A stretch of DNA of 43,095 nt. It comes from an uncultured Kiloniellales bacterium (GTDB taxonomy: Bacteria; Actinomycetota; Acidimicrobiia; Spongiisociales; UBA5794). A program made the translations under genes and the position numbers. Under the pieces are notes generated by a model. That model was given only the letters and a program-made list of their open reading frames with translations. It was not told the DNA's origin and ran no database searches. The stretch spans positions 1 through 43,095 of the forward strand of contig CAXMPL010000183.1 in the NCBI GenBank assembly GCA_964195125.1, in the 5' to 3' direction. Positions 3,322 to 42,997 of this stretch are shown piece after piece (position 1 is the stretch's first letter; every line of letters begins with the position of its first letter).

Positions 3322-3342
3322 GAGTCGCGAGTCGCGAGTCGC
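3322..3342 (+). repeat. Tandem heptamer array (GAGTCGC)x3
   Basis: Three perfect head-to-tail copies read directly. The same unit recurs at 39955-39975 (reverse complement), 42788-42816 and 42959-42972 (reverse complement). Confidence 0.9.
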
Positions 3343-3442: not shown

Positions 3443-3517
3443 CGTAATACGTAATACGTGATACGTAATACGTGGTTTGTGATACGTAATACGTATTGCC
3501 TACGTAGTAGGCAATAC
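3443..3517 (+). repeat. AT-rich tandem heptamer array (CGTAATA-type, about 8 units) ending in an 11-bp-stem palindrome
   Basis: Units read as CGTAATA CGTAATA CGTGATA CGTAATA CGTGGTT TGTGATA CGTAATA CGTATTG. The palindrome is GTATTGCCTAC-gta-GTAGGCAATAC (3493-3517). The local AT-richness contrasts strongly with the window. Confidence 0.9.
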
Positions 3518-3561: not shown

Positions 3562-4056
3562 ATGGCCCGCGCACTTGTGCTCAATGCAAGTCTCGAGCCG
3601 CTGTCGGTCGTTCCCGTTCAGCGGGCGCTGGTGCTCGTCCTTGCCGACCGTGCCGAGGTCGTCGTGTCCAACGGCGTGGTATGGCACTCCGAGCACATAA
3701 CGATGGCGTCGCCATCTGTGGTGCAGCTTCGCCGATTTGTTGCGGTGCCCTATGCGAGGCGGGTTCCTGTGAACCGGAGAACCGTCTTCCATCGCGACCG
3801 CGACGCCTGCCAATATTGTGGGCGGCAGGCTGAGAACCTGGACCACGTCATTCCCCGTTCGAGAGGGGGCGAACACACGTGGCGCAACGTGGTCGCCGCC
3901 TGCCGTCGGTGCAATACGCGCAAGGGAGGCAGAACTCCTAAAGAGGCGGGCCTCCAGTTGAGACGCAACCCGCGGGTGCCGCCGAGGGATAGCTGGGTCG
4001 CAGCCGCGCTCGGCGGTATGCCGGATGCGGAGTGGGCGCCCTACCTCAAGGTCTAA
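3562..4056 (+). CDS. Standalone HNH endonuclease (164 aa)
   Basis: HNH core CQYCGRQAENLDHVIPRSRGGEHTWRNVVAACRRCNTRKG. No SD. TAGCCT (TANNNT) lies 6 nt upstream of the ATG, so the mRNA may be leaderless. Confidence 0.85.
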   Translation: MARALVLNASLEPLSVVPVQRALVLVLADRAEVVVSNGVVWHSEHITMASPSVVQLRRFVAVPYARRVPVNRRTVFHRDRDACQYCGRQAENLDHVIPRSRGGEHTWRNVVAACRRCNTRKGGRTPKEAGLQLRRNPRVPPRDSWVAAALGGMPDAEWAPYLKV

Positions 4057-4091
4057 GCTCGCGCACCGGTCGGTGACCGGATCGCGCCCTC

Positions 4092-4256
4092 TTTGCGGAG
4101 CCTCTATTTTTCCCGCTCTTGCCGCCTTGCGGCGGGCCGCTTGGGCCACGGCTCCGCAAATGGTTTTTCAACACAGACCGGATCGCTCCCGATTGCGGAG
4201 CCTCTATTTTTCCCGCTCTTGGCTACGGGCCGCTCGCGCTGGGCAGCGGCCTACGG
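4092..4256 (-). repeat. Structured GC-rich intergenic repeat, locus 1 (one full core plus one partial core; core reads on the minus strand)
   Basis: Core reverse complement at 4107-4157. Inverted 10-11-mers are TTTGCGGAGCC 4092-4102, GGCTCCGCAAA 4150-4160 and TTGCGGAGCC 4193-4202. Partial second core at 4203-4256. The locus lies between the convergent HNH and thioesterase genes. Confidence 0.9.
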
Positions 4257-4262
4257 GGGCAC

Positions 4263-4760
4263 TTACTCGCTGTTGATCCTGACCAGAACCGCAGAGCCTT
4301 TGGCGGTCACCTGATCGTCGACCCATAACTCGGTCTCGACGATCACTTTGCGGATCGAGCCGGGTTCGATGTCCGCCAGGTCTGAAGGAGCTCCCTTGTC
4401 AAGTAGGGCGCGCCCTACGAGGCGCATCGGGGCCAGCGGCGTCGGCGCCAGATAGTCCACCTCGAGGTGAGCGGTGACAAACCGTGGCGCCGGGTCGCTC
4501 CCGATCGTGCCGCCCTCAGCCTGCATAGCGAGGATCGCCGCCGAGCCGGTTGAGTGACAGTCGATGATCGACGCGATCAAGCCACCGTAGGTCGAGTCGA
4601 CATAGGCAGTATGGAACGGCTCGGGTACGAACTCGGTGAGCGTCCTAGTCCCCTGGGGTCGTGTCTTGATCTGATAGCCGGCATCGTTGAGCCGTCCGCA
4701 CCCATAGCAGTGCGCCGCTGGCTCGTCGTACATGTCCTGGATGGCGATCGATTCGGTCAC
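4263..4760 (-). CDS. Hotdog-fold (PaaI-like) thioesterase with N-terminal Cys-pair
   Basis: 165 aa. N-terminal CYGCGRLNDAGYQIK followed by a hotdog-like region (YGGLIASIIDCHSTGSAA). The family call is by resemblance only. Confidence 0.6.
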   Translation of the reverse strand: MTESIAIQDMYDEPAAHCYGCGRLNDAGYQIKTRPQGTRTLTEFVPEPFHTAYVDSTYGGLIASIIDCHSTGSAAILAMQAEGGTIGSDPAPRFVTAHLEVDYLAPTPLAPMRLVGRALLDKGAPSDLADIEPGSIRKVIVETELWVDDQVTAKGSAVLVRINSE

Positions 4761-4811
4761 CGGCGCATGATGGCAGACACGGCACCGTCACGCACCCTCG
4801 CATGGCTCGCT

Positions 4812-4976
4812 AGATCAGTCGATCAGTAGCAAGAGGCTCCGCACATGGCGCGCGATCCAGTCTCTGTTCGCGAGGCTATTTGCGGAGCCGTGGCCCGAGC
4901 GGCCCGCCGCGAAGCGGCAAGAGCGGGAAAAAAGCTCCACCTCTGTCGATACGACCGGTCACCTATCGGTTTGCGT
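4812..4976 (+). repeat. Structured GC-rich intergenic repeat, locus 2
   Basis: GATCAGTC GATCAGTA lead-in, GGCTCCGCA 4835-4843, loop, TGCGGAGCC 4881-4889, 50-nt core 4882-4931, and a tail ...GACCGGTCACCTATCGGTTTGCG. Confidence 0.9.
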
Positions 4977-4981
4977 CCTCG

Positions 4982-5749
4982 CTACTGCTCTACTTTTTCC
5001 GCGATGGCTTCGAGTGCGGGCGTCGCGATCCCGGCGCTGCGTGCGAAGCGAAGAGCCCGCTCCAGACGGCGTGGTGCGCTCCTGCCCGTTGCGCCGTGGT
5101 CGGGGTCGGCGTCGAAGGCGGTAACCATCGCATCCATCGCCCTTTCCCGATCTAGCGGCTCCCCGACTAGGTGCTCTTGGATATCGAGCACCTCGGCGGC
5201 CACCGGTCCCGCCAGCTCGGGATGCCCGTTCCACAGCTCTGACACCGTCCCGCCCGTCTGCATGCCGCCGATGTTTGCGGTCAGGATGTACAGGTTCTTG
5301 GCCACGAGGGCGTCGACCAGCTCGTCACGAGGGATGACCTTTGCCGCAATGCCGAGCCGATCCAACGCTGTGGCCACGAGTTCCGCCTGGGGCCCGGCAA
5401 CGAGGGTGGGGACGATTACCTTGACCGGTGTACCCGGCTTCTTCTCGAACCAGACGGAGGCAACGGTCGGGTCTGCGATCCCGTGTCTCATCCAGTCACG
5501 CGGGAGCAGTTCATTCTGGATCAGACCGACGCGAGGGCGCCACATTGCAGGAAGGCCGTCAAGCGTCTCATCCAGGTCGGCTTCCCCGACGGTGACCAGG
5601 ACCAGTGCGGGGTCGGGGACGGTCGTGGCGGCGTCCTCCATCGAGGTATGGCGGAGCGCGGGATAGACGGGGTATCCCACACTCAGGAAGGCCCTGGCGA
5701 ACACCCCACCCATCTCTCCCAGCCCGACAACGACAATCGGCCGCTCCAT
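4982..5749 (-). CDS. NAD(P)-binding Rossmann oxidoreductase (ketopantoate-reductase-like), 255 aa
   Basis: I trim the 363-aa track ORF to the internal ATG (MERPIVVVGLGEMGGVFARAF, a GxGxxG motif). The upstream 108 codons run through repeat locus 3 and the mraZ promoter region and look non-coding. Confidence 0.55.
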   Translation of the reverse strand: MERPIVVVGLGEMGGVFARAFLSVGYPVYPALRHTSMEDAATTVPDPALVLVTVGEADLDETLDGLPAMWRPRVGLIQNELLPRDWMRHGIADPTVASVWFEKKPGTPVKVIVPTLVAGPQAELVATALDRLGIAAKVIPRDELVDALVAKNLYILTANIGGMQTGGTVSELWNGHPELAGPVAAEVLDIQEHLVGEPLDRERAMDAMVTAFDADPDHGATGRSAPRRLERALRFARSAGIATPALEAIAEKVEQ

Positions 5750-5780
5750 GGCGCAGAGGCTACCCGGCCCGGGCCACCGT

Positions 5781-5943
5781 CGAATCAGTGGTAAGAGGCT
5801 CCGCAAGAGAGCCCGATCCGGTTTCTGTCGCAAGGCCTTTCGCGGAGCCGTGGCCCGAGCGGCCCGCCGCGAAGCGGCAAGAGCGGGAAAATGGCTCCAC
5901 TTCTGTCGAGACCGGCCGGCGTCATCGCGAATCAGTGGTAAAG
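5781..5943 (+). repeat. Structured GC-rich intergenic repeat, locus 3, flanked by a 14-bp direct repeat
   Basis: 50-nt core at 5842-5891. GGCTCCGCAA at 5797-5806 pairs with CGCGGAGCC at 5841-5849. CGAATCAGTGGTAA occurs at 5781-5794 and again at 5928-5941. Confidence 0.9.
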
Positions 5944-5968
5944 CGGGGGTTGTCGGGGGCCGATAAGG

Positions 5969-6030
5969 TTGACAGGTGGTAGATAGTGGGCCATAGTGGC
6001 GACCTGTGGAGGATGGTGACCGAACCGTGA
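5969..6030 (+). promoter_or_regulatory. Putative mraZ promoter (TTGACA -35, CATAGT -10) overlapped by a 10-bp-phased GTGG direct-repeat array (candidate MraZ operator)
   Basis: TTGACA at 5969-5974, a 17-nt spacer, then CATAGT at 5992-5997. GTGG starts at 5976, 5986, 5996 and 6006, and GTGA at 6016 (exact 10-bp phase). A further GTGA at 6027 is 1 nt out of phase. Confidence 0.55.
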
Positions 6031-6045
6031 TGGAGGCGCAGACGC

Positions 6046-6477
6046 GTGTTTCTTGGGGAATACACCCATGCACTCGATGCCAAGGGGCGGATTGTGATGC
6101 CCAGCAAGTTCCGAAAGGGGCTGGAAGCAGGGTGCGTCGTCACCAAGGGTCAGGAGCGCTGCCTGTACGTCTTTTCGATGGATCGGTGGGAAGACGAGGC
6201 AGGTCGCGTGCTCTCTCTCCCAAGAACAGATCGGCGGGCCAGGAACTTCTCGCGGTCCTTCTTCGCCTCGGCGACGGACCAGCGTCTCGATGGGCAGGGG
6301 CGGATTCAGCTCCCAGAGGCGCTGCGGACGTACGCCGGGCTGAGGAAGGACCTGGCGGTAGTGGGCGTCGCCGATCACATCGAGATCTGGGCGACGGACG
6401 TGTGGGAATCGGTCGCCGCCGAAGCCGACGAGTACTACGCCGGGATCGAGGAGGTGCTGTCGGAGGATGGAATATGA
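6046..6477 (+). CDS. mraZ: Transcriptional regulator MraZ
   Basis: 143 aa, starting MFLGEYTHALDAKGRIVMPSKFR, with a duplicated SpoVT/AbrB-like half (DGQGRIQLP). GGAGG lies 9 nt upstream of the GTG start. Confidence 0.95.
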   Translation: MFLGEYTHALDAKGRIVMPSKFRKGLEAGCVVTKGQERCLYVFSMDRWEDEAGRVLSLPRTDRRARNFSRSFFASATDQRLDGQGRIQLPEALRTYAGLRKDLAVVGVADHIEIWATDVWESVAAEADEYYAGIEEVLSEDGI

Positions 6478-26917: not shown

Positions 26918-27070
26918 GCGTCAGCCCAGAGGCTCCGCAAAATGTTGCGCGATTCGGTCCGTCGGCGACACCGTTTGCGGAGCCGTGGCCCGAGCGGCCC
27001 GCCGCGAAGCGGCAAGAGCGGGAAAATGGGACCACTTTCCTCGAAACGACCGGTCACCCACCGATTGCGC
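26918..27070 (+). repeat. Structured GC-rich intergenic repeat, locus 4
   Basis: GGCTCCGCAAA 26931-26941, TTTGCGGAGCC 26974-26984, 50-nt core 26977-27026, and a tail ...GACCGGTCACCCACCGATTGCG. It lies between the divergent ileS leader and the DUF167 gene. Confidence 0.9.
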
Positions 27071-27102
27071 GCTCTTGGTGCTGCAACGGGTAGCGTCCGA
27101 CG

Positions 27103-27393
27103 ATGAGTTGGATCGAACACCATCCAGGGGGATCCCTGGTGACGGTATGGGCGGTTCCCCGGGCCTCGCGCACCGAGATCGTCGGTCTTCACGATGGTGC
27201 GCTGCGTGTCTGTCTCGCCGCTCCGCCCGAAGCCGGGAAAGCCAACAGGGAGCTAGAAACCATCCTCAAGACGACATCGGGCGCAGCAGCCGTCGAACTC
27301 CTCTCCGGCAGCACGAGCCGCAAGAAAACCCTGGTGTTGCGAGGCGTCGACCCGGTGGACGCTCGCAGACTGCTCAACGCAGGAGGCGCATGA
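27103..27393 (+). CDS. DUF167 (YggU) family protein
   Basis: 96 aa. The VWAVPRASRTEIVG...PEAGKANRELE pattern is typical of YggU. Confidence 0.8.
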   Translation: MSWIEHHPGGSLVTVWAVPRASRTEIVGLHDGALRVCLAAPPEAGKANRELETILKTTSGAAAVELLSGSTSRKKTLVLRGVDPVDARRLLNAGGA

Positions 27394-30669: not shown

Positions 30670-31452
30670 CTATCGGCGGTGCCGCCAGGGCGGGTCGGGG
30701 CCTGCCCGCGGTCGAATCAGTCGACGCCGTTGCCGTGGGCTGTCGAGGGCGATGCGGAATCCTTGGCCGTGGATGGCGACGTGGTGGTGGTACCAACACA
30801 GCGTGGTGAGGTTGTCGGGGTCGTGGGTGCCGCCGTGGCGATGTTCTCGAATATGGTGAGGTTGCAGCCGGTAGCGGCTCTGACAGGCGTCGATGGTGCA
30901 GCAACGGTCACGCCAGGCCACGAAGCGGCGAACCGCCGGTGGGATGGCCCTGGCGGCGTCTGAGGTGACGACGGGTCGTCCGTCGGCGAGTCCGATGAGT
31001 TGCACCGACCCGGTACACAGCAAGGTTTCGAGTGTGTTGGGTCCGACCCGCGGTCCATATTCGATCTCGGCCCCGGTCTCACCGCCGCTGGTGTTGGCGG
31101 CGTCGAGGTCGACGAACACTGCTACGGAAGGCCCTGCCAATCCGCCGGCATCAGCGTTTCCATTGCGATCGAGGGAGTCTTGTGCCATGGCGACCAGGGC
31201 GTCGGCTTGGCGTTGTGCCCTCGTGAACTCGTCACCCCCGAGGAGTTGGCGAAACTCGTCGGCACGGTTCTGGAGCGCTTTGGCGAAGGTGCGGCCCTCG
31301 AGGCCCGGGAGTTGCCCTAAGACTCTCCACGTCGATTCATCGAGCGTTGGCTGCGCCATACAGAACCGCTCTGCAAACGCCCGCCGCTCGTTGCGATGAG
31401 TCATCCGACGCTGTCGCGCACTGAGCCGGGCCACATCATGCAGGTCGAGCAA
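30670..31452 (-). CDS. DUF222-type HNH endonuclease (13E12-repeat-family-like), short form
   Basis: C-terminal CTIDACQSRYRLQPHHIREHRHGGTHDPDNLTTLCWYHHHVAIH, preceded by a DUF222-like region. It is only 260 aa with a TTG start, so it may be 5'-truncated. Confidence 0.75.
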   Translation of the reverse strand: MLDLHDVARLSARQRRMTHRNERRAFAERFCMAQPTLDESTWRVLGQLPGLEGRTFAKALQNRADEFRQLLGGDEFTRAQRQADALVAMAQDSLDRNGNADAGGLAGPSVAVFVDLDAANTSGGETGAEIEYGPRVGPNTLETLLCTGSVQLIGLADGRPVVTSDAARAIPPAVRRFVAWRDRCCTIDACQSRYRLQPHHIREHRHGGTHDPDNLTTLCWYHHHVAIHGQGFRIALDSPRQRRRLIRPRAGPDPPWRHRR

Positions 31453-35080: not shown

Positions 35081-35085
35081 CCACC

Positions 35086-35106
35086 CAGTTTCCAGTTTCC
35101 AGTCAA
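35086..35106 (+). repeat. Tandem heptamer CAGTTTC CAGTTTC CAGTCAA
   Basis: Read directly. It fills most of the 31-bp gap between convergent dnaE and the ArsA-like gene. Confidence 0.8.
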
Positions 35107-37080: not shown

Positions 37081-37380
37081 GGTGAGATCGGTCGATGGGT
37101 TATCGGTTGTCTCGGCGGAGGTGGTCTGATTTTTTCCGCTCTTGCTGCTGCGCAGCGGGCCGCTCGGGCCCCGGCTCAGCGGGTTCTCTTCTTCAGCAAA
37201 AGCCAGGTCGCGTTCCATCCGCTTCGCCTTGGTGAGATCGGTCGATGGGTTATGGGTTGTCTCGGCGGAGGTGGTCTGATGTTTTCCGCTCTTGCTGCTT
37301 CGCAGCGGGCCGCTCGGGCCCCGGCTCAGCGGATTTCCCTCATCGATACCGGCCAGATCGCGTCTCATCCACTTCGCCTC
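37081..37380 (-). repeat. Structured GC-rich repeat, locus 5: two tandem 150-bp units (37081-37230, 37231-37380)
   Basis: The units are near-identical over the first ~105 nt (5 substitutions) and diverge in the last ~45 nt. Each contains a core (37130-37183, 37280-37333, minus-strand orientation) with the GCTGC/GCAGC stem variant. The locus lies between the 73-aa ORF and the ArsA-like pair. Confidence 0.9.
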
Positions 37381-37646: not shown

Positions 37647-39299
37647 TCATTCACCCGGCACTTCGAGGGCGGCCCGTTTTGCCGCAGATCGGCGCTCGGA
37701 CTCGAGTCTGGAGAGCTCGTAGTCGTCGTAATCGACAAACTTCATCCCATCGGCGATGAGGCGGTGCCCGGCGACGTCACCGATGAGCCGGTGCATCTCC
37801 TGAGCCACCCTGCGGTAATCCGGATGCCCGGTGCGCTGGCTGCGCAACTCGGTGAAGTGGAAGGCCTCTCTGGCGTTCATGTGCAGGTAGTACCGGATGC
37901 GGTAGGCGAAGGGGATGACGTACTGGGCGACATCCTCCCCATGAGCGGATGCCACTCTCTCGTGGAGTGCCTCCGCCCGTTCCATGGCCTCTGCCCACTG
38001 TGCCCCGCCGCCGATGTCGGCGATGGAGCCCGGGGTGACGAAACCGTGGACGGGTGAAAGGCGCTGCCATTCGAGGGTCAGCATCCGGTGGCGCTGCAGG
38101 TCGCGGAAGACCCCGTAATCGGAGAGGACATCGAACCGGTAGAACACCCGCTCCATGGATCGACCCGGCTTGTGCCTCCGGTTGCCACGCTCGCCGATGG
38201 CGGCGCGAATCAACGTTTGCCGGTCCTCGACGGGAAGCCGGCGCACATAGTCGAGCAGTTGATCGTCTGGCAGATCGGAAGCGGAGTACAGCGCAGCTGC
38301 CGCCACCTTGGTCTCGGCGTCCGGATCCCATTCAACGAGCGTGACTTCGTCTCGGTGCTGTGGCGCAAGCCCGATTTGGGCGGCACGGGCGCCGAGTCCA
38401 GCAGCCACAGACGCCAGATAGTCGCTCCACGCTCCGCCTCTATCGGGGACGTCGACTCGTTTGAGGAACGAAGGGATTACCTTGCGCAGCTCGGTGAGGA
38501 TGAGGTCGGAATAGCTGCGCGCCTCGTGCAGGGGGTGGGAACGCATGCGAAGCAGCAGTGCCTCATATGCTTGGCCGCTTGCGAAAATGCCGAGATTGGA
38601 CACAGTGGATGCCGGGAGCAGCCCGCGAAGATCGTCGCACGCCTTGGCTCTGATAGTGGAACGCCAGACGAAGCTGGAATCCCCCTCCTGTTGTGGGAAC
38701 AACGTCTCGTAATACGGAACCGCACGGGCCACGAGGGATGAGTAGGCATCGAACAGCCAATCCATTTGCTCCACGTAGTCGTCGCCGAGGGTGGAGCCTG
38801 CTAGCTCGGTTGGGATGTGATAGCGATAGCGAGCTCCGAGCTTCCGGTCGTAAAAGATGTAGCGAGTCGACTCCTCGAGGTAAGAGCCGAGGCGTCCCCA
38901 TTCGAGGACCTTGGTGAGCAGGTTGGAGGCTTGTTCGCAGGCGATGTGCGCAGCACCCAGTTGGGCGACCGAGTCGTCCCCGTACTGGGTGAATACGCGG
39001 TCGTAAAGTCGCTCGGCTCGCTGCAGGTCGACTATCGGATCGGCGCCATCGAGTTGCCCGGCGATCGCCTCCAACCCGGCATCGGCGTCGGCGACGAATT
39101 CATCGAGGAAGAGGCGCCGCACCGATTTCGGTGAGCGGCTGTAGCGTGCGAACAACGCACCTTTCACCACCTCAGGCAGGTTGACGACCGCATAGACCGG
39201 TCCATCGAGCTCGGTGAAGAACCTGCCGAGCACGGCGCGCTCGTCGTCGGTGAACGTCTCGACGTGGTAAGCCGGCGGGGGAAGGATTGTGGTGGTCAT
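37647..39299 (-). CDS. Fused double-domain ThyX-like (FAD-dependent thymidylate synthase family) protein, 550 aa
   Basis: The N-terminal half has YGDDSVAQLGAAHI and WGRLGSYLEESTRY (ThyX motif lacking RH). The C-terminal half has FRDLQRHRMLTLEWQRLS and NAREAFHFTELRSQRTGHPDYRRVAQEM (ThyX-like C-terminal helix). Confidence 0.7.
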   Translation of the reverse strand: MTTTILPPPAYHVETFTDDERAVLGRFFTELDGPVYAVVNLPEVVKGALFARYSRSPKSVRRLFLDEFVADADAGLEAIAGQLDGADPIVDLQRAERLYDRVFTQYGDDSVAQLGAAHIACEQASNLLTKVLEWGRLGSYLEESTRYIFYDRKLGARYRYHIPTELAGSTLGDDYVEQMDWLFDAYSSLVARAVPYYETLFPQQEGDSSFVWRSTIRAKACDDLRGLLPASTVSNLGIFASGQAYEALLLRMRSHPLHEARSYSDLILTELRKVIPSFLKRVDVPDRGGAWSDYLASVAAGLGARAAQIGLAPQHRDEVTLVEWDPDAETKVAAAALYSASDLPDDQLLDYVRRLPVEDRQTLIRAAIGERGNRRHKPGRSMERVFYRFDVLSDYGVFRDLQRHRMLTLEWQRLSPVHGFVTPGSIADIGGGAQWAEAMERAEALHERVASAHGEDVAQYVIPFAYRIRYYLHMNAREAFHFTELRSQRTGHPDYRRVAQEMHRLIGDVAGHRLIADGMKFVDYDDYELSRLESERRSAAKRAALEVPGE

Positions 39300-39372: not shown

Positions 39373-39645
39373 GTGGTCATCCTGCTGAGAGTCGTCCAAG
39401 CGATCCTGCTCGCGGTCGTCGCTGCAATCGCCGCAGTGCCGCTATTCCTCGTATTCGATCTGGTCTCAGGCGGAACGGCACTGGGGCTGTGCCCGAGCGG
39501 GATCGCCAGGTGTGAGCCTGGATATTTCAGCGGCATCGAGCTATTCGGAATCCTGCTCGTTGCTCTGTTCATTGCCATCGGAGGCGTCGGACTGTGTGCG
39601 GCAGGGATCCGACGCGTTCAAAGTACTCAGGGCGCGCACCGATAA
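39373..39645 (+). CDS. Hypothetical small membrane protein (90 aa, 2-3 TM)
   Basis: Hydrophobic segments VVQAILLAVVAAIAAVPLFLVF and IELFGILLVALFIAIGGVGLCAAG. GTG start with no clear SD. Confidence 0.4.
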   Translation: MVILLRVVQAILLAVVAAIAAVPLFLVFDLVSGGTALGLCPSGIARCEPGYFSGIELFGILLVALFIAIGGVGLCAAGIRRVQSTQGAHR

Positions 39646-39882
39646 GTGACCGGTCGTCTCTCGATAGAAGTTGAGCCTCTGTTTTTCCCGCTCTTGCCAC
39701 TGCGTGGCGGGCCGCTCGGGCCCCGGCTCAGCGGACTTCTCTGATCGTTGATGCCCAGTGGTCGCATCCGCTTCGCCTTCGTTTCCCGCTCTTGCCGCTT
39801 CGCGGCGGGCCGCTCGGGCCCCGGCTCCGCAAATGGCTTTTCGCAAAAGAGACCGGATCGTGCGCTATTTGCGGAGCCTCGA
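39646..39882 (-). repeat. Structured GC-rich repeat, locus 6 (two cores, 100-bp spacing)
   Basis: Cores at 39682-39733 (GCCAC/GTGGC stem variant) and 39782-39832 (1 mismatch to the consensus). GGCTCCGCAAA at 39823-39833 pairs with TTTGCGGAGCC at 39868-39878. Confidence 0.9.
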
Positions 39883-39895
39883 GTACCAAGTAATC

Positions 39896-39975
39896 GAGTC
39901 GTCAGCCATCAGTCGTCAGTCCTCAGCAACAAACGTTGCGTTGAGTTTTGGCTCGCGACTCGCGACTCACGACTC
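39896..39975. repeat. Heptamer arrays GAGTCGT CAGCCAT CAGTCGT CAGTCCT CAGCAAC ... GCGACTC GCGACTC ACGACTC around a small hairpin
   Basis: Read directly. The central hairpin is GCAAC-aaac-GTTGC at 39926-39939. The outer GAGTCGT (39896-39902) is complementary to ACGACTC (39969-39975). The arrays lie immediately upstream of nth. Confidence 0.8.
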
Positions 39976-39991
39976 GTAAGCTTCGCTACCC

Positions 39992-42816: not shown

Positions 42817-42954
42817 AAGCCAGAATCTCTGGGATGGGGGCTCGGAAACTGGGGACCCGTGTCCGGCCACCGGCAACGAGGAACCGAAGATCAAGCAACC
42901 TCATCGCAGCCGTCGGTGGTACTCGCCCCTGGATGGAGAGATACGAGCATCGCT

Positions 42955-42972
42955 ACTCGCGACTCGCGACTC
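42955..42972 (-). repeat. Heptamer array (reverse complement) tACTC GCGACTC GCGACTC
   Basis: GCGACTCGCGACTC at 42959-42972 is the perfect reverse complement of GAGTCGCGAGTCGC at 42803-42816. Confidence 0.85.
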
Positions 42973-42997
42973 GGGACCTGGTCGCTAGTCTCGCTCG

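Follow-up and report, generated by a model that had tools for sequence, protein, structure and literature searches.

The window analysed here is the whole of one stretch of DNA, 43,095 nt of contig CAXMPL010000183.1 (positions 1 to 43,095; GenBank assembly GCA_964195125.1), and represents a housekeeping segment of a bacterial chromosome. It carries MoxR/DUF58 genes, an HNH gene, the mraZ-led cell-division cluster, ileS, WS/DGAT, dnaE, two genes for ArsA-like ATPases, thyX, nth, an MFS transporter gene, and DsbD. At five intergenic loci in this segment, we found eight full cores and one partial copy of a non-coding, hairpin-rich repeat, where the chance expectation is none. The complete repeat is an element of about 147 bp. 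As discussed below, it is very probably a transposon of the miniature inverted-repeat transposable element (MITE) type that duplicates a 3-bp TNA target (N, any base). The window matches contig CAXMQE010000392.1 of the NCBI metagenome-assembled genome (MAG) GCA_964195365.1, and proteins at least 90% identical to those of the window carry the labels Acidimicrobiia, Actinomycetota or, in some MAGs, Acidobacteria. The carrier lineage appears to be Acidimicrobiia.

The 50-nt plus-strand cores of elements A, B, and C (Table 1) are exact matches to one another, as a first-pass annotation of this DNA had reported, and shuffled sequence gave 0 matches. On the minus strand, two cores are near-exact, with 3 mismatches in array D/E and 2 mismatches in unit I. 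For the latter, the first-pass annotation had counted a single mismatch and placed the core at 39782-39832. The diverged minus-strand cores and the partial copy that it had listed were borne out by repeat finding and a nine-way alignment. Hidden Markov models of the individual modules, run over the window, returned 8 cores, 8 copies of the hairpin module M1, and 3 canonical tails, with no further matches. Every copy in the window is intergenic under our own gene calls and both orientations are present, in agreement with the earlier description; three of the loci (4057-4256, 37081-37380, and 39630-39880) proved to be arrays of two or three units and not single elements.

Table 1. Copies of the element in the window, with their parts, target duplications, and neighbouring genes where listed.
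Feature	Position	Strand	Description
Array D/E	4057-4256	-	Partial "short-core" unit at ~4203-4256; M1+core unit; M1/tail hybrid
M1+core unit of array D/E	M1 4150-4205; core 4108-4157	-	
M1/tail hybrid of array D/E		-	Ends GCGCGAGC at 4057-4064
Neighbours of array D/E	3562-4056; 4263-4760	+; -	Convergent genes
Element A (solo)	4833-4980	+	148 nt: M1 hairpin, exact core 4882-4931, tail
Left TAA target duplication of element B	5792-5794	.	
Element B	5795-5938	+	144 nt: M1, exact core 5842-5891, atypical tail
Right TAA target duplication of element B	5939-5941	.	End of 14-nt direct repeat CGAATCAGTGGTAA
Element C (solo)	26929-27074	+	146 nt, exact core 26977-27026
Element F (subfamily b)	37081-37230	-	150 nt; M1 stem GGCGAAGCGG/CCGCTGAGCC, core 37133-37180, b-type tail
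Element G (subfamily b)	37231-37380	-	150 nt; 87% identity to F; diverged core 37283-37330
Array H/I	39630-39880	-	Unit I, then unit H
Unit I of array H/I		-	a-type M1 + core 39781-39830
Unit H of array H/I		-	b-type M1, core 39685-39732, a-type tail

We built a consensus from 95 solo copies, which reads (C-TNA)-GAGGCTCCGCAAATAGGGCGCGATCCGGTCTCTGTCGGCGAGGCCATTTGCGGAGCC-GTGGCCCGAGCGGCCCGCCGCGAAGCGGCAAGAGCGGGAAAA-ATGGCTCCACTTCTGTCGAGACGACCGGTCACCTATCGGTGCGCGCTC-(TNA-G). The complete element runs 5'-GAGGCTCCGC...GCGCGCTC-3' (GAGGC...GCGCTC), with a TNA triplet beside each end, and consists of three parts: the long hairpin M1, which includes the left inverted-repeat end, the core, and the tail. 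M1 is a GGCTCCGCA/TGCGGAGCC hairpin with a CGATCCGGTCT loop. The core comprises two small hairpins (GGCC-CGAGC-GGCC and GCCGC-GAA-GCGGC) together with AAGAGCGGGAAA, and the tail, which carries GACCGGTCACC, is overall a degenerate inverted copy of M1. The first-pass annotation had recognised this order of hairpin, core, and tail correctly; the true ends, GAGGC on the 5' side and GCGCTC on the 3' side, lie outside the modules that it named. Single elements cluster at 145-149 nt, and a short-M1 subfamily, in which a 24-nt mini-hairpin replaces M1, clusters at 109-112 nt. At 147 nt, the unit is too short to hold a protein-coding gene.

Both termini open with GAG: conservation of GAGGC on the 5' side is at least 90%, and the 3' terminus, read as its reverse complement, is GAGCGCGC. 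When one end is inverted, the terminal 17 nt of the two ends agree at 13 positions in the short form and at 10 in the long form, and this imperfect repeat extends weakly to ~40 nt. Over ~50 nt, the inverted similarity scored 34, compared with 24.9+/-3.9 in shuffles, 55 of 2000 of which reached 34. Pairing of the M1 stem GGCTCCGCAAAT/ATTTGCGGAGCC is kept by compensatory changes in 6 of its 12 pairs, as seen in the variants GGCTCAGCGG/CCGCTGAGCC, GGCTCTGCGG/CCGCAGAGCC, and GGCTCCACA/TGTGGAGCC, and the small GCCGC/GCGGC hairpin also occurs as GCTGC/GCAGC. A helix closing the core, between GCGGAGCC and GGCTCCAC of the tail, was rejected, being 72% paired and showing no compensation.

Beyond the window, a degenerate core pattern found exact matches in only two of 185,579 GTDB species genomes: an Acidimicrobiales soil MAG with 7 copies, and a MAG labelled Acidobacteria with a tandem array. 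The same pattern matched more than 118 metagenome contigs and yielded 147 exact cores. These related metagenome loci, 770 kb in total and collected with the exact core pattern, are designated by L numbers. A BLAST search with the 154-nt consensus gave no matches in plasmids or phages, and a pattern scan of viral contigs gave none either.

A filled and an empty site could be compared directly. The locus L071 reads ...gacgTAA(GAGCGCGC...GGAGCCTC)TAAactag, with the element in parentheses, while the orthologous L016 reads ...ggcgTAAactgg, indicating a clean insertion with duplication of TAA. Likewise, element B is flanked by TAA on both sides, and the syntenic L107, which lacks the element, has a single TAA at this site (...CAGTGGTAAAGCGG). 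Identical flanking triplets were present in 10 of the 47 elements with clean ends (five TTA/TTA, five TAA/TAA, and no TTA/TAA). A second parse gave matching triplets in 8 of 56 elements against 2.6 expected (permutation p=0.002). Among short-M1 copies, read by eye, we observed TGA/TGA twice, TCA/TCA once, and TTA/TTA once. The base 5' of the triplet is C in 32 of the 56 elements; on the 3' side, 23 have G and 20 have A. A TA duplication of the IS630/mariner type was also considered and rejected, as it gave inconsistent ends and left TGA/TGA and TCA/TCA unexplained.

The first-pass annotation had proposed recent mobility, and comparison with close relatives upholds it. In addition to the absence of B from L107, array H/I is absent from the syntenic L019, L098, and L064. 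Array lengths differ even among near-identical strains: the F/G locus holds 1-3 units in differing arrangements in seven strains with flanks 87-100% identical, and L128 and L129, whose flanks are 100% identical to the window, have two units at B, i.e. one extra M1+core unit. Many other orthologous loci differ by ~100 nt, corresponding to one tail-less unit, or by ~150 nt, corresponding to one whole element. Tandems of whole elements are mostly spaced by exactly 3 nt, the spacing predicted for a second copy inserted into the TNA that was recreated next to the first. In the window, F and G form such a head-to-tail tandem, with CAA at the junction.

Taken as a MITE, the element has the size and lack of coding capacity of this class, terminal inverted repeats, a duplication of fixed length, and dispersed, polymorphic copies. 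The first-pass annotation could assign it to no family. In line with this, Rfam 15 gave no match and we found no published description in the searchable literature; its terminal inverted repeats, 3-bp TNA duplication, and filled/empty pair nevertheless place it among the MITEs. We therefore regard it as an undescribed family within a known class, and not as a new kind of system. For the source of the transposase, the IS1031 group of the IS5 family is a candidate to which we give about an even chance. In the ISfinder family table, the ends of IS1031-group elements start with GAG, as do those of the present element. Members of this group prefer TNA targets and generate an exclusive 3-bp direct repeat (PMC12016507).

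In the mechanism that we propose, a transposase acting in trans, most likely a DDE enzyme of the IS1031 group, would insert the element at TNA, preferably C-TNA-G, and duplicate the 3 bp. TAA and TGA are themselves TNA triplets, and TA followed by the first G of the element makes TAG, so an insertion at a stop codon leaves the gene intact. Copies thus accumulate exactly at gene ends, in either orientation. Since the first base of the element is G and its last is C, an insertion recreates C-TNA-G at either side, which invites a second copy and would produce tandems 3 nt apart. Recombination or deletion between repeated modules may then generate the arrays of tail-less M1+core units, whose number would change rapidly between strains.

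Several observations weigh against this reading or against parts of it. A perfect duplication is kept in only ~1/5 of the copies. Copy B has a non-canonical tail and an exact 14-nt direct repeat (5781-5794 and 5928-5941) that is present once at the L107 empty site; being longer than the 3-bp duplication elsewhere, it is not explained by a 3-bp staggered cut. The inverted repeats are weak in the commonest subfamily (10/17; p~0.03 over the longer stretch), and conservation is higher in the core than at the ends, an unusual pattern for a DDE-type MITE. Arrays of tail-less units, some of them of mixed subfamilies (H/I and L098), are not explained by simple transposition. Modules are also shuffled among subfamilies, such as a b-type M1 with an a-type tail, and together with the mixed arrays this points to recombination at the core. 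Finally, neither the window nor the 770 kb of related loci yielded a transposase with matching ends, and the IS5/IS1031 attribution was drawn from the target, the duplication length, and the end signature only. Among 20 window proteins searched with Pfam, only housekeeping functions were seen and none was a transposase; scanning for the C-terminal motif of IS5-type transposases gave 0 matches, and no inverted pairs of the terminal repeats 0.6-2.6 kb apart with matching triplets were detected. All-against-all clustering of 1458 open reading frames (ORFs) from the 770 kb of flanks showed no recurrent neighbour gene, only common paralogous families.

The relation of the element to genes bears on whether it acts as DNA or as RNA. 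A structured cis-acting RNA (a 3'-UTR stabiliser or terminator) or a family of small-RNA genes, repeated because of function instead of mobility, could account for the compensatory changes in the M1 stem and in the GCCGC/GCGGC hairpin, for the many copies directly after stop codons, for a GAYA tetraloop on one strand of the short-M1 form, and for a hairpin followed by a T-run in antisense arrays. Such an RNA would be expected to keep one orientation, but a gene 3' end adjoins the 5' side of the element in 40 of 82 long-M1 loci and the 3' side in 34. Similarly, 16 of 42 clean elements have a triplet or terminus that coincides at least partly with the stop codon of a coding-like ORF (5' side in 10, 3' side in 7, both sides in 1). 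Loci B, C, and H/I lie between divergent genes, and the copies are insertion polymorphisms with target duplications. Mismatches in the hairpin stems show no strand asymmetry, with 10 G-T and 11 A-C, and single copies fold little better than shuffles on either strand (z -0.25 to -3.2). Rfam 15 gave no match over the window at gathering thresholds and nothing meaningful at E<=10, where the only match in 3950-6050 reached 19.6 bits against a gathering score of 112. The orientation, mismatch, folding, and Rfam results fit a DNA-level element whose target contains stop codons, not a strand-specific RNA, and we consider a primary RNA function very unlikely.

Two other origins for the repeats share features with a MITE at the DNA level. 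Elements of the repetitive extragenic palindrome (REP) or REPIN type are hairpin-forming and are moved as single-stranded DNA by a domesticated Y1 (RAYT) transposase, with the hairpins as recognition sites. The extragenic, hairpin-rich, and very dense copies, the mosaic arrays reminiscent of bacterial interspersed mosaic elements (BIMEs), the covariation of the stems without strand asymmetry, and an interior more conserved than the ends would all suit this origin. It is nonetheless highly improbable in view of the 3-bp target duplication and the clean filled/empty pair, since to our knowledge REP and IS200-IS605-type elements make no target duplication. In addition, the unit is ~147 nt and not 20-40 nt, it has no conserved GTAG-type head, and the 770 kb of related loci contain no recurrent neighbour gene. 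A minisatellite or variable-number tandem repeat (VNTR), spread and homogenised solely by recombination and gene conversion, would explain arrays that vary by ~100-nt units among near-identical strains, modules shuffled between subfamilies, and identical cores beside diverged loops. Recombination alone, however, puts no copies at new sites, whereas many unrelated loci hold solo copies whose ends are defined and flanked by TNA duplications, and the empty site has a single TAA. We accordingly give this origin scarcely any credence as well. Integron attC sites, suggested by an apparent bracketing of gene cassettes, were dropped without a formal test, given both orientations, the housekeeping neighbours, and the TNA duplications.

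If the element is a MITE, the conservation of its core calls for comment. Over the 50 core positions, elements A, B, and C do not differ at all, but identity falls to 76-83% when windows of 109 nt that span the core are compared. Element A and its ortholog in L107 have identical 50-nt cores (0 differences), with flanks that have diverged by ~9%. The loci were gathered with the exact core pattern, so that invariance of the core across samples is partly a matter of ascertainment. Copies outside the search pattern contain full cores with 1-3 substitutions (by eye) or a "short core" (GGCCCGATGTGGCCCGTAGCCAAGAGCGGG), and averaged over full and short cores, the identity of the core (84%) is no higher than that of M1 (84%). 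The first-pass annotation had offered strong selection as one reason for the three identical cores. It is not needed to explain them, even though the remainder of the element is less conserved than the core. An unlikely but not negligible idea is that the core is a functional cassette carried round the chromosome, for example a protein-binding or hairpin-forming DNA or RNA module, and kept by selection in each copy. Regardless of its orientation, such a module could serve as a boundary of transcripts, a target for RNase, or a site of recombination. A functional core would explain why it is better conserved than the ends and why modules of different subfamilies are always joined at it.

The short core, GTGGCCCGATGTGGCCC-GTAGCC-AAGAGCGGG, lacks the GCCGC/GCGGC hairpin and is usually the first unit of an array. 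Besides the partial copy in array D/E, we found it in the arrays of L025, L045, L060, L067, L077, L083, L086, L091, and L094.

The genes next to the elements are convergent at D/E, oriented on the same strand at A and F/G, and divergent at B, C, and H/I. The flanking triplet of array D/E, TAA at 4054-4056, doubles as the stop codon of the HNH gene. Element A ends, on its 3' side, 1 nt away from the stop codon (4982-4984) of the gene 4982-5749 on the minus strand. Element B occupies the divergent region between this gene and mraZ (6046-6477, +). The first-pass annotation had called genes near these copies a thioesterase and an oxidoreductase, names that found no support in Pfam or NCBIfam. Element C lies between ileS (-) and a DUF167 gene (27103-27393, +), with mismatched flanking triplets, CCA and TTG, and array H/I is located between thyX (-) and nth (+). 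A sigma-70-like promoter match (TTGACA, 17 nt, CATAGT) at 5969-5997 (+) lies upstream of mraZ and ~28 nt downstream of element B, which would put the insertion of B a short way upstream of what is likely a promoter for the cell-division cluster.

Some further features of the window and its relatives were noted. The small McrA-like HNH endonuclease gene (3562-4056, +) adjoins array D/E; it is syntenic in relatives and not multi-copy, and is therefore probably unrelated to the element. A second HNH gene, of the DUF222+HNH type (30670-31452, -), seems to be 5'-truncated in the window: the match to the DUF222 profile begins only at position 140, and the syntenic L098 (3816-4280) has ~370 nt more at this gene. 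DUF222+HNH genes are a selfish-looking family common in actinobacteria. The thyX ORF (37647-39299, -) encodes 550 amino acids, ~2x the usual length; it matches Thy1 over two stretches, of which the best-scoring spans residues 320-509. Intergenic tandem repeats of 7-8 nt are common in the lineage (GAGTCGC, CGTAATA, CCAGTTT, AGTCGTC, GATCAGTA, and CCAAGTA). Such tracts occur in the window at 3322-3342, 3443-3495, 35085-35103, 39897-39926, 39952-39976, and 42950-42977, and also at L107:3393-3520 and L098:7818-7913, as a heptamer tract in L099, and as an octamer tract in L126. They often form inverted pairs that, directly downstream of a stop codon, would fold into a long hairpin. One such inverted pair encloses element A, and several other elements abut these tracts.

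With this element, a poorly known and mostly uncultured actinobacterial class gains a well-defined MITE family that is currently active. The combination of a TNA target with G...C ends, which allows the element to settle exactly on stop codons in either orientation and to rebuild its own target, constitutes a safe-landing mode. The expression of essential genes could be altered by the copies that occupy divergent promoter regions, upstream of mraZ, of ileS, and of thyX/nth. On the practical side, the elements probably break metagenome assemblies of the carrier organisms, and the fast-changing arrays could serve as strain markers, as VNTRs based on mycobacterial interspersed repetitive units (MIRUs) do in mycobacteria. 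The family opens no new category of biology, except in the case that its conserved core proves to be functional in itself.

Among known systems, MITEs derived from IS5/IS1031 elements share with the present family a small size, the absence of coding sequence, terminal inverted repeats starting with GAG, the 3-bp TNA duplication (PMC12016507), and high copy number with insertion polymorphism. The present family differs in the weak terminal repeats of its main subfamily, a hairpin core conserved above the ends, and tail-less arrays. Tourist-type MITEs of plants (mPing and mJing; PIF/Harbinger) also make a 3-bp TTA/TAA duplication, and their transposase superfamily is related to IS5. They are eukaryotic, of other size and sequence, and are not known to have a conserved hairpin core or to land on stop codons. 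The Correia elements (NEMIS) of Neisseria are intergenic MITEs of ~100-150 bp that are very dense and often co-transcribed, with hairpins able to affect mRNA. The density of copies in the chromosome is comparable here, but Correia elements duplicate TA and carry 26-bp inverted repeats of unrelated sequence, and we know of no tandem arrays of partial units among them. REP, BIME, and REPIN sequences resemble our element in their extragenic, hairpin-forming mosaic arrays of very high density; their units are 20-40 nt and Y1-mobilised, in contrast to ~147 nt with a 3-bp duplication. The MIRU-VNTR loci of mycobacteria offer a parallel in an actinobacterial chromosome, with intergenic tandem units of ~50-100 nt whose copy number varies among close strains. 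Neither inverted repeats nor target duplications are known to flank MIRUs, whereas the arrays described here are secondary to a transposon that has both.

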